From an uncultured Poribacteria bacterium (GTDB taxonomy: Bacteria; Poribacteria; WGA-4E; WGA-3G): a stretch of DNA of 64,000 nt. Numbering within the stretch: the first letter of the stretch is position 1; each line of letters starts with the position of its first letter. The position numbers were made by a program, and so were the translations under genes. This document shows, piece after piece, positions 40,807 to 43,355 of the stretch. Below the pieces are notes generated by a model. The model saw only the letters and a list, made by a program, of their open reading frames with translations. It was not told the origin of the DNA and did not search any database. The stretch is taken from NCBI GenBank assembly GCA_951813565.1, contig OX638351.1, positions 4,544,001 through 4,608,000 of the forward strand, read 5' to 3'.

Positions 40807-42051
40807 ATGACTATCATTGGTAAAATAGCAATGTTTAATACCCTAACCGAACTCATAGAAAAAGTCCATCTCGGCGAAGACGCAACGATAGAATTCAAAA
40901 GAGAGATGCCGCGCAGAAGCAACCTTGCAGACGAAATTGCCGCGTTTGCCAATGCAAAAGGCGGTGTTATACTCATCGGTGTTGACGACGATAGCGAAAT
41001 CATTGGGTTAGACAAAGCGGACTTGGATAAGGCAGAAAAGGCAGTCGTTGAAATCTGCCGAGACAGCATTGACCCCATCGTTCTGATATTCACAGTAAAA
41101 TTACGGATTGACGATAAAAATCTGCTGAAAATAGAGGTGCCGAGAAGCCTATTTGTTCACAAAACCGCGAACGGTTACTTCATTCGCCAAGGAAGTAGCA
41201 AAAGAGAAATGTCCTCAGAGCAGTTAGCGCGGTTGTTTCAAACCCGATCACAGGCACGTATCATCGCCTTTGACGAACAATTCGTCCCGAACACACATCA
41301 AGGGACATTAAAAGAACCGCTCTACCGCCGATTTATCACAGAAGGTGCAGCGGAAGATGAGACAGAAGACCTACTCCTGAAAAGACGTTTACTCGTCAAG
41401 GAAGGTCAGGAGATTCGCGCCTCTATAGCCGGTATCTTGATGTGTCATGACACACCCGATGACTACCTTTACAACAGTTTCATTCAAGCGGTTTTGTATA
41501 AAGGGAAGGAAAAAGACGCAAACAATCAGTTTGATGCCACAGACATTCGGGGACCGTTAGACCAACAGATTATAGAAGCAATGAAATTCGCTGGTAGATA
41601 TAACGCGGTCGCAGCAAAGAAGGATATTGGCAGAATAGACGTCCCGCAATACAGCATGCGTGCCGTTTTTGAGGCAATCGTCAACGCTGTCGTGCATAGA
41701 GATTATTCAAAAAGCGGCTCAAAAATTCGGTTGTTTATGTTTGATGATCGGCTTGAACTTTATTCGCCTGGGGCATTGGCAAATACGGTGACAGTGGATA
41801 ATTTACGTTACAGCCAAGCCACGCGAAATGAACTGCTCGCGCGGCTACTTTCGGAAATTACGTTGGATGATAATATGAGAAGACAAGTAGTCCGCAGGCA
41901 CTTTTTAGAACGCAGAGGCGAAGGTGTCGGTATCATTCTGAACGAAAGCGAGGAATTGAGTGGAAAACCGCCTATCTATGAACTCTTTGACGAGGAATTA
42001 CGTCTGACAATTTTTGCTGCACACACAATTCCTCACTATTATTCAAAATGA
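40807..42051 (+). CDS. AlbA_2 (Schlafen-like) plus HATPase_c_4 (RecG C-terminal-like) protein
   Basis: GED..IEFK, IAAFANAKGG.I.IGVDD, EAIVNAVVHRDYS, YSPG.L, RNE, ERRGEGV. Start may be 40831. Confidence 0.88.
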   Translation: MTIIGKIAMFNTLTELIEKVHLGEDATIEFKREMPRRSNLADEIAAFANAKGGVILIGVDDDSEIIGLDKADLDKAEKAVVEICRDSIDPIVLIFTVKLRIDDKNLLKIEVPRSLFVHKTANGYFIRQGSSKREMSSEQLARLFQTRSQARIIAFDEQFVPNTHQGTLKEPLYRRFITEGAAEDETEDLLLKRRLLVKEGQEIRASIAGILMCHDTPDDYLYNSFIQAVLYKGKEKDANNQFDATDIRGPLDQQIIEAMKFAGRYNAVAAKKDIGRIDVPQYSMRAVFEAIVNAVVHRDYSKSGSKIRLFMFDDRLELYSPGALANTVTVDNLRYSQATRNELLARLLSEITLDDNMRRQVVRRHFLERRGEGVGIILNESEELSGKPPIYELFDEELRLTIFAAHTIPHYYSK

Positions 42052-43098
42052 ATACAGTGCCGTTATAGAAACCAACGCCCCCAATTTAAACGCATCGTTA
42101 CCCGATGCAGAATCATCGTATAAAGTTTCCTGCTGCATCGGCAACATAAACGTAATAGAGAGCGGGACGTTGTAAGGTGTCGCGATAGAAGTGCCCAGCG
42201 ATACCAGGCTAAAACGTAGTCCTGTATTGATGTCAATCTCACCATCCCAATGTGCATAAGATTGGTAAAGCCCAAGATAACTTGTCTGCAGCGAAAGCCA
42301 ATCGGTGATACGATAATTCAACCCACCAGTATAGGTAACATCCCATGAACCGCGATAGTTTTTGCTGTTTTCATAGAACGGATACTTACTTCTAACACTT
42401 GCGTTTGCCCTCAATCCGCCATAGACAGGAAAACTATAACGAAGGTCTGCAATCGGATTAAATGTGCCAGTACCGAATTGAATATGAAGATGTTCCATCC
42501 CCATATCTCCGAGTTTCCATGGGTCATTTTCAGTCTTACCGAACGGAATTGTTGTGCCAATTTTCGCGGTCAGCATATCATTTTGCCCGAAGATACCATG
42601 TTTGTGATAAGCTATCAAAAGATCCATATCTGATACACCTTGATAGGTTTCGTCTCGGTGATGAATTTCTTGATAGAGTAAAATCTTCCTTCTTACCTCA
42701 GGATCATCAATGTTCTCAAGTCCGCCGACGTTGGCATCTTGGTCTTTTATCTCATAAGGCACCACTGTTTCCAGTCGCAAATGCTTGTTAAGTTGATATT
42801 TTAGCCCAATATCAAACCGCACAACGTTCATCTCAACTTCATGTTTGTGAGCAGCCACAACTTCGGGTAGACTACCTATTGAAGATAATCCTTTAACCTC
42901 GTCGTGTCCACCTTGTGCATTAAACGTTCGCGTGCCAAAGGAGATTTGAAATTTCTTTTGCTCTGAAGTTAAACTAACTTCACTACCCTCACCTTGTGGG
43001 ATTGTGGGGTTGCTTCACGCACCTCAGCTCTCTTGTGCAAAACCGAGAGAAATGAAAATAAATTGAATGGCTAAAATTACAGAAAGGAGGTTTTTCAT
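42043..43098 (-). CDS. Outer-membrane beta-barrel (MetA-pathway/transporter-like), predicted selenoprotein with N-terminal UxxU
   Basis: GAGGT RBS, ATG 43098, signal peptide to LGFA, then QES-UGA-GA-UGA-SNPT, continuing in frame into ORF 42043-42858; 351 codons; ends in Phe. Confidence 0.8.
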
Positions 43099-43355
43099 AT
43101 CTGTTTTTACCTCAGGAATGTGTTTTGTACAGTTAGTAGAATTTTATTGTTCAGTTGTTCGGTTAAATTCATTTTGTCCCAATCTCATTATATTTTAGCA
43201 GATTATTTCTCACCGTGTCAAGGCAAATCAGAATCAAATTGATGTTGACATCTCTGAACTGATAACATATACTTTATTGAGCAATAATTATGCGATAGAT
43301 AGGCAGAATTAGATTGGTTTGTGTCATGCAACATAAAACATAAATGAGGTAAAAG

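Follow-up and report, generated by a model that had tools for sequence, protein, structure and literature searches.

A gene on the minus strand of a 64,000-nucleotide (nt) stretch of genomic DNA from an uncultured member of the Poribacteria (contig OX638351.1, positions 4,544,001 to 4,608,000; this whole stretch is hereafter called the window) very probably encodes a protein with two selenocysteines (Sec, U). Comparison of related loci indicates that both in-frame UGA codons of this gene, which spans positions 42043 to 43098 of the window, almost certainly specify Sec, and structural modelling makes it highly likely that the product is a 12-stranded beta-barrel of the outer membrane. The gene represents a selenoprotein family that is new, and the barrel scaffold it is built on is uncharacterised. 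As a whole, the observations are probably best explained by a double-Sec barrel precursor in which the UxxU motif acts as a metal-binding or redox pair.

The reading frame runs from ATG at 43098-43096 to a TGA stop at 42045-42043 and is open except for two internal TGA codons, at 43026-43024 (codon 25) and at 43017-43015 (codon 28). A list of open reading frames compiled with translation table 11 opens the gene at GTG 42858 instead, which gives a product of 271 residues. The original prediction, made from the letters of the window, extended the frame from 42858 to ATG 43098, with a GAGGT ribosome-binding site and a signal peptide, and it placed the only interruptions at codons 25 and 28, within QES-U-GA-U-SNP and at CxxC spacing; the sequence bears out both points. 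The precursor begins with MKNLLSVILAIQFIFISLGFA, followed by QES-U-GA-U-SNPTIP, and a similar hydrophobic leader ending in (G)FA/FG-Q is found in frame in the orthologues and paralogues whose sequences were written out. A promoter-like site with 11 of 12 consensus matches lies about 94 nt upstream of ATG 43098, a position that fits a transcription start ahead of the predicted signal peptide. The elements of the gene are as follows.

42043..43098, minus strand: complete coding region of 351 codons and a TGA stop, its two in-frame UGA codons being probable Sec (sequence, orthologue read-through, three assemblies)
43192..43221, minus strand: promoter-like site, TTGACA and TAAAAT 18 nt apart, the -10 hexamer being preceded by TG (consensus match only)
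43109..43113, minus strand: ribosome-binding site GAGGT, 10 nt ahead of the ATG (sequence)
43036..43098, minus strand: signal peptide, residues 1-21 (MKNLLSVILAIQFIFISLGFA), predicted cut before Q22 (sequence reading, no predictor)
43024..43026, minus strand: UGA 1, codon 25, probable Sec; Cys (TGC/TGT) in 8 of 57 related loci (locus comparison)
43015..43017, minus strand: UGA 2, codon 28, probable Sec; TGA in 57 of 57 phylum loci, Cys in distant CxxC homologues (locus comparison)
42952..43035, minus strand: mature N-terminal segment, residues 22-49, with QES-U-GA-U-SNPTIP; low-confidence model (AlphaFold2)
42046..42951, minus strand: modelled 12-stranded beta-barrel domain, residues 50-351 (alignment, AlphaFold2, fold matches)

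Three DNA assemblies, from three studies, each contain positions 41950-43250 without a break. The single-base differences number 10, none of which falls in either TGA codon, and there is no insertion or deletion; one of the three is near-identical to the window and may be its own source. The suspicion that the TGAs are errors is refuted, since three independent assemblies keep both. A 293-nt contig from an RNA library is identical to 42705-42997 and reaches upstream of the called start at 42858; I take it as a weak hint of expression, because its depth is 2.6 and DNA carry-over is possible. The observation of one intact gene in a sponge-associated bacterium is thus confirmed.

Orthologues with as little as 38% identity still have both TGAs. 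When 176 genomes of the phylum were searched in six frames, 140 gave matches, most of them two each. Every one of the 150 matches listed, beyond which there were 101 more, contains in-frame TGA (two in 141, one in 8 and three in 1). The 57 loci examined, whose identity to the window gene ranges from 99% to 38%, all have [U/C]xxU-SNP straight after the hydrophobic leader, the full N-terminal motif being (A/G/S)Q(E/D/Q)(S/G/P)-[U/C]-x-x-U-SNP; it reads UxxU in 49 and CxxU (CPAU, CGAU, CAAU or CSAU) in 8. Near-identical CxxU and UxxU paralogues coexist in two genomes, in tandem in G055 and on separate contigs in G064. The tandem CAAU and UGAU copies (G055:C1:6235489-6239091) are separated by about 1.5 kb in which an IS4/5-type transposase gene lies, and a gene for an ABC ATPase is found upstream. 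The genome of the window also has the barrel gene in a second copy (C1:2495435-2496514, minus strand); it is 56% identical, has two TGAs and carries UGAU-SNP after its signal peptide, and its neighbours, which encode an aldo-keto reductase, a GFO/IDH oxidoreductase and a lipid A acyltransferase, are unrelated.

More distant homologues show which amino acid the UGA codons stand in for. A HMMER search over 1.84 billion representative sequences gave 387 matches, among which 14 were chosen for detailed reading because their alignments reach the N-terminus. Ten of these, all full-length, have Cys at both motif positions (CPACSNP in five, CPACTN in one, with CAACxNP, CAGCRNP and CSGCTNP also found), two are gene calls with W at TGA (SWGAWSNP and CSLWSNP), and two begin downstream of the motif. 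The original prediction expected Cys or TGA aligned at both positions, and this is what the homologues have: true Trp or Arg never occurs there, W coming only from calls that read TGA as W. Since homologues carry Cys at both positions, reassignment of TGA to Trp or Gly is excluded. The homologues end at the same C-terminal Phe, with TGA or another stop codon, and the stop of the window gene is itself TGA. In a quick maximum-likelihood tree search, rooted at the midpoint, one branch (support 99) sets nine CxxC rows apart, and the 57 Sec rows group together (99); at least three Cys/Sec changes are required at position 1, some of them between near-identical paralogues in one genome.

The family looks different in public records. 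A word-indexed protein search returned 477 homologues, and among the 120 listed the coverage of the query is at most 89%; the eight public homologues examined, two of which have the source name Candidatus Poribacteria, all begin after the second TGA. Because every gene call listed truncates the family, the signal peptide has been lost from these records. Entries P0190 and P0174 of public collections render TGA as W, presumably under a code in which TGA is Trp, and the Sec motif is hidden there.

The genome of the window is complete, on one contig of 5.43 Mb (C1), and the machinery for Sec on which the prediction depended, selA, selB, selD and a single tRNA-Sec, was found in full. The tRNA-Sec scores 78 bits against an Rfam cut-off of 47 and is the single match above it; ARAGORN also identifies it as tRNA-SeC with anticodon tca. 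The selB gene directly adjoins it. The selD gene has one in-frame TGA, in the context ...KCAG-U-ASK, and is thus itself a selenoprotein gene; it lies at C1:4610940-4611866 (minus strand), about 3 kb past the end of the window.

The mRNA behind the two UGAs is structured. The original prediction pointed to a modest stem-loop after the second UGA, where a bacterial selenocysteine insertion sequence (SECIS) would be expected. That stem-loop is real and conserved, but it is one of two conserved hairpins and so is not singled out as the SECIS.

42985..43010, minus strand: hairpin 1, ACCCCAC, 11-nt loop, GTG(A)GGGT (covariation)
42964..42982, minus strand: hairpin 2, UGAAGUUA-GUU-UAACUUCA (covariation; loop fits the bacterial SECIS loop pattern)

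In hairpin 1, ACCCCAC at 43010-43004 pairs with GTG-A-GGGT at 42992-42985. Alternative registers, such as AUCCCAC-AAG-GUG(A)GGGU, are available because the sequence of the 5' arm is nearly repeated. At pair 28-42, 28 sequences have AU, 16 have GC and 3 have GU, and in one family (f4) the stem is fully compensated, as CCCGTCT/AGACGGG. Hairpin 2 is better conserved: 97.8% of cells are paired, four of the eight pairs are altered on both sides, and pair 60-66 is UA in 33 sequences, CG in 24 and broken in none, both changes being synonymous. The two-hairpin model as a whole has 91.0% of cells paired and a covariation of 0.253, a value reached by none of 500 shuffles, and slid controls have at most 47.6% paired. 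A single long hairpin, the minimum free energy fold with both UGAs in its lower stem, was rejected; it has 85.2% of cells paired and a covariation of 0.174, less than the two-hairpin model, and 24 of 57 sequences break its pair 22-60 while being compensated under the two-hairpin model. Synonymous-codon entropy agrees with constraint on the RNA, with a mean of 0.567 over residues 29-48 against a median of 1.06 in equal-sized windows elsewhere, none of 165 being as low. The Ser codon after the second Sec (43012-43014; columns 19-21 of alignment A1) is AGC or AGT in 57 of 57 loci, never TCN. As it is always AGY, UGAAG is present twice, once at UGA 2 and once within the 5' arm of hairpin 2, and the 3' arm of that hairpin, ACUUCA, could pair with either. 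The constancy of AGY may reflect either a codon-context effect or this alternative pairing. The hairpin of selD, which has a loop of CCG or UCCGG about 15 nt after the UGA, is unlike both hairpins of the barrel gene.

A parallel for two closely spaced UGAs exists in the group 4 [NiFeSe] hydrogenases with UXXU, where the UGAs are likewise six nt apart and CXXU, UXXU and CXXC forms are mixed across the tree, according to the paper describing them. Its authors raise the possibility that one downstream SECIS decodes both UGAs and, by analogy, one element may serve both UGAs of the barrel gene. These hydrogenases differ in being cytoplasmic or membrane-bound enzymes with a Ni-binding site, and their SECIS loops all have a conserved G; in the barrel gene, by contrast, the hairpin whose loop is canonical is farther from the UGAs than usual.

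The original prediction also called the product an outer-membrane barrel, rich in His and ending in Phe. The His-rich motifs and the C-terminal Phe are present in the protein, and modelling and fold matches agree confidently with the barrel call. AlphaFold2, run with an alignment of 64 sequences, gave a mean predicted local distance difference test score (pLDDT) of 88.5 and a predicted TM score (pTM) of 0.85, with residues 50-351 mostly above 90 and residues 17-45 below 50; the DSSP string contains 12 strands. The 271-residue product of the truncated frame is without the signal peptide and the first 1.5 modelled strands. In VIA-align the best structural match is the COG4313 channel Pput2725 (4rl8; Z 24.4, root-mean-square deviation 2.7 A, 253 of 267 residues aligned), likewise a 12-stranded barrel of similar size. 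FapF (5o65/5o67), also 12-stranded, follows (VIA-align Z 23.4; Foldseek E 1e-12, TM score 0.54-0.69), at 12-14% identity to the window protein; the next entries, autotransporter barrels, have Z of 19 or less. Scans of the window's proteins revealed no Fap-type neighbours. FapF is not known to carry a Cys or Sec motif.

At the level of sequence, no Pfam or NCBIfam model matches the protein above cut-off, PF13557 does not match at E<=0.01, and NCBIfam returns no family at E<=0.1; nor does NCBIfam return any for six of the seven CxxC homologues scanned, the seventh (P0133) being matched by HMA-type models, below their cut-offs, only in an HMA domain fused to its C-terminus. The distant homologue P0244 reaches 18.3 bits with PF13557, against a cut-off of 22, and precomputed PF13557 labels are found on 2 of the 120 homologues listed. 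The alignment identifies H86, H146, H147, D157, G181, P185, H203, G209, G211 and W284 as invariant and H65, R148 and H205 as near-invariant. From the DSSP string and the usual topology of such barrels, the histidines would be located in loops 2-3 and in those halves of strands 1-2 that face the cell exterior.

The prediction further described the N-terminal segment as a plug. Here the barrel part of the description stands, and the plug has only an analogy behind it: in the COG4313 crystal structure the segment before strand 1 occludes the lumen. The N-terminal segment of the window protein may, by this analogy, be lumen-occluding, or it may be a periplasmic arm. Neither the abstract nor the outline of that work mentions a CxxC/UxxU-SNP motif or a histidine cluster. 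Overall, homologues, machinery, assemblies and the barrel model are all favourable to the idea of an exported selenoprotein channel.

What the UxxU motif might do is suggested by gene neighbourhoods, which were examined at four loci of Cys forms and about five of Sec forms; a single-protein query for Cys-form loci found only two. In Bacteroidota, a gene for an HMA-thioredoxin fusion stands directly upstream of the CPAC form of the barrel gene, on the same strand, at all four loci.

L074, 6253-6990, strand of the barrel gene: HMA-thioredoxin fusion gene
L075, 6336-7004, strand of the barrel gene: HMA-thioredoxin fusion gene
L099, 9389-10075, strand of the barrel gene: HMA-thioredoxin fusion gene
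L100, 7611-8276, strand of the barrel gene: HMA-thioredoxin fusion gene

This fusion was not matched to a described Mer or Cop component. The clusters around it also encode MerT-HMA (two loci), an HMA-bearing MerA-type pyridine-nucleotide-disulfide reductase (one), P1B ATPases (two), ArsR (two), a CsoR-like repressor (one), single HMA proteins and a TonB-dependent receptor (one), so that the Cys forms of Bacteroidota belong to clusters of the mer/cop type at four loci of four. Because the CPAC forms follow the HMA-thioredoxin gene among genes for MerT, MerA-like and P1B-ATPase proteins, the handling of soft metals is the best functional guess. In the genome of the window three of the four HMA domains have an in-frame TGA in the metal-binding motif, and this, together with the Bacteroidota context, favours a soft-metal role for the UxxU arm. 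Two of the HMA genes, tandem and coding for small exported lipoprotein-like proteins with GMTUGSC and GMTUGNC, lie at C1:4462024-4463019 (minus strand), roughly 82 kb ahead of the window. Provided the protein is real, I consider the odds slightly in favour of its handling soft metals.

The following scheme brings these elements together. The precursor of 351 residues would be exported through its signal peptide for the Sec secretion pathway (residues 1-21) and would consist of a flexible segment, Q-E-S-Sec-G-A-Sec-S-N-P, ahead of a barrel (residues 50-351) of the COG4313/FapF fold class that carries the cluster of invariant histidines. SelB and tRNA-Sec would read both internal UGAs as Sec, the signal being the mRNA structure in codons 29-48; the terminal UGA has no such structure behind it and would act as a stop. 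UxxU would be the selenium version of the CxxC pair that defines the barrel family. At the periplasmic mouth or in the lumen, it might chelate a soft metal, Hg(II) or Cu(I), or shuttle between diselenide and diselenol, and metal would pass between the histidine site of the barrel and periplasmic carriers of the HMA type. Within this scheme the analysis shows the coding, the conservation, the equivalence of Cys and Sec, the Sec machinery, the RNA structure and the fold; the metal role, the direction of transport and the geometry of the plug are inferences. A more specific form of this scheme, which I put forward tentatively as less likely to be right than wrong, is that the protein is an outer-membrane component of mercury or copper traffic: a dithiol or diselenol arm would catch the metal at the histidine-lined lumen and pass it, in that direction, to HMA carriers, the UGAs being decoded through a two-hairpin signal with a distal loop of the SECIS type.

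Several observations weigh against this scheme. As to decoding, the published bacterial SECIS model allows 16-37 nt from the UGA, and neither hairpin fits that model in full. The loop of hairpin 2, (A)GUU(U) or (G)GUU(C), is of the textbook kind, but the distance to UGA 2 is about 40 nt and that to UGA 1 about 49 nt; hairpin 1, in its small-loop register, is 19 and 28 nt from the UGAs and is without the loop G in the clade of the window, where the loop is AAG. An Rfam scan of 42850-43150 at E<=10 returned no family. A 2026 review of selenoproteins reports that some bacterial SECIS elements depart from the model. As to the metal, the UxxU segment is modelled at a pLDDT below 50, and COG4313 proteins are implicated in the uptake of hydrophobic molecules, not metals. 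PcoB (7pge), an outer-membrane barrel from a metal-resistance system, is a weak match to the model (VIA-align Z 12.4, rank 20), and no sequence relation to it was found. No metal genes of the mer/cop kind adjoin the window gene, its paralogue or two further loci of the phylum, the neighbours at the paralogue and at the tandem locus of G055 being unrelated enzymes, and the genome of the window has no MerT match and no homologue of the HMA-thioredoxin protein. The metal context consists of four loci in one other phylum, where a close homologue was found in only 3 of 401 sampled Bacteroidota genomes. The immediate neighbours of the window gene are a divergent gene for an S9 peptidase and a convergent gene for a Schlafen AlbA_2 / HATPase_c_4 ATPase; the former stands beside 0 of 29 orthologue loci and the latter beside 14 of 29 (1.5-kb flanks). 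Since neither is widely conserved, no operon partner can be named. The Schlafen gene (40807-42051, plus strand) overlaps the last 9 bases of the barrel gene.

The alternative that best survives these points accepts a genuine double-Sec barrel but makes it a channel for hydrophobic or other small molecules, in which UxxU or CxxC is a redox gate, closed as the diselenide and open as the diselenol. I regard it as unlikely, though it draws on the same fold: the best match is a COG4313 barrel whose N-terminal segment occludes the lumen and whose relatives are implicated in hydrophobic uptake, and the phylum of the window offers no metal context. The thioredoxin domain of the Bacteroidota partner could simply reduce CxxC; yet the same partner carries an HMA domain and its clusters contain genes for MerT, MerA-like proteins, P1B ATPases and metal-sensing repressors. 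The fusion of one homologue to an HMA domain and the six invariant or near-invariant histidines, which suggest a metal site, also argue against a mere channel, and PF13557 stays below its cut-off.

Less probable still is an exported double-Sec protein that mainly carries out redox reactions of the envelope (as a relay for peroxide or disulfide, or in handling selenium or sulfur species), with the barrel as an anchor only. Most catalogued selenoproteins with UxxC, CxxU or UxxU are indeed similar to thiol oxidoreductases, according to the 2026 review, but no thioredoxin-like fold surrounds the motif here, which lies in an unstructured segment. Moreover, conservation is as strong in the barrel and its histidines as in the motif, and the metal-gene context in Bacteroidota also speaks against this reading.

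It is very improbable that the UGAs are read as Cys by a SelB-dependent tRNA of the tRNA-ReC (selC*) type. A 2026 paper reports that tRNAs similar to tRNA-ReC are enriched in genomes with UXXU hydrogenases. The 49 tRNAs that ARAGORN finds in the genome of the window, however, include one tRNA-SeC(tca), the only tca tRNA, and one ordinary 75-nt tRNA-Cys(gca), with no further long tRNA of tca or gca anticodon, and the tRNA-Sec model of Rfam has a single match above its cut-off. It would also be pointless for position 1 to switch repeatedly between TGC/TGT and TGA, and for position 2 to keep TGA strictly, if both meant Cys. Finally, that the TGAs are stops, errors or lesions of a pseudogene, leaving the 271-residue frame from GTG 42858, or that TGA means Trp or Gly throughout the genome, is scarcely credible even though automated callers give the truncated product in all 120 entries listed, because that product is deprived of the signal peptide and of the first 1.5 modelled strands, loci of as little as 38% identity retain the frame upstream with its signal peptide and motif, both TGAs are the same in three assemblies, and homologues carry Cys, not Trp or Gly, and end at the same Phe whatever their stop, the window gene's own being TGA.

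A double-Sec barrel with a metal or redox role thus remains the preferred reading, and it can be set beside the selenoproteins already catalogued. The prediction took UxxU to be rare, and so it is, but not without precedent: in the table of the 2026 review, Prx-like, NF041115 metal-binding and FmdB families are entered with UxxU, to which the group 4 NiFeSe hydrogenases are to be added. The NF041115 proteins have, like the window protein, two Sec at CxxC spacing and, with the Sec-containing HMA, MerT and P1B-ATPase families of the same review, share its proposed soft-metal context; these are soluble HMA-fold or inner-membrane proteins, whereas the window protein is a predicted outer-membrane barrel with the motif in an unstructured segment. 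Among the 119 selenoprotein families of Table 1 of the review there is no such barrel, the only outer-membrane entries being the GSU2204/MtrB-PioB barrel (NF041027) and the FCYXU TonB receptor (NF049945). These are likewise outer-membrane selenoproteins, but they have one Sec each, much larger barrels and other motifs, and neither model matches the window protein. In full-text searches of the literature on UXXU selenocysteine, on Poribacteria selenoproteins and on outer-membrane beta-barrel selenoproteins, titles, abstract openings and selected passages disclosed nothing on this barrel family. In figure legends from two reviews of mer systems, mercury diffuses across the outer layer and no Mer protein of the outer membrane is named.

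The family is therefore one that is absent from Pfam, from NCBIfam and from the 2026 table while being widespread in one phylum, where 140 of 176 genomes have it, in two or three copies each. Unusually among catalogued selenoproteins, its motif belongs to a protein exported to the outer membrane and lies in an oxidising compartment. The locus provides a test case for the decoding of UGAs that are six nt apart and for the distance that may separate a bacterial SECIS from its codon. If the metal reading is true, these barrels could provide the step at the outer membrane in the handling of mercury or copper.

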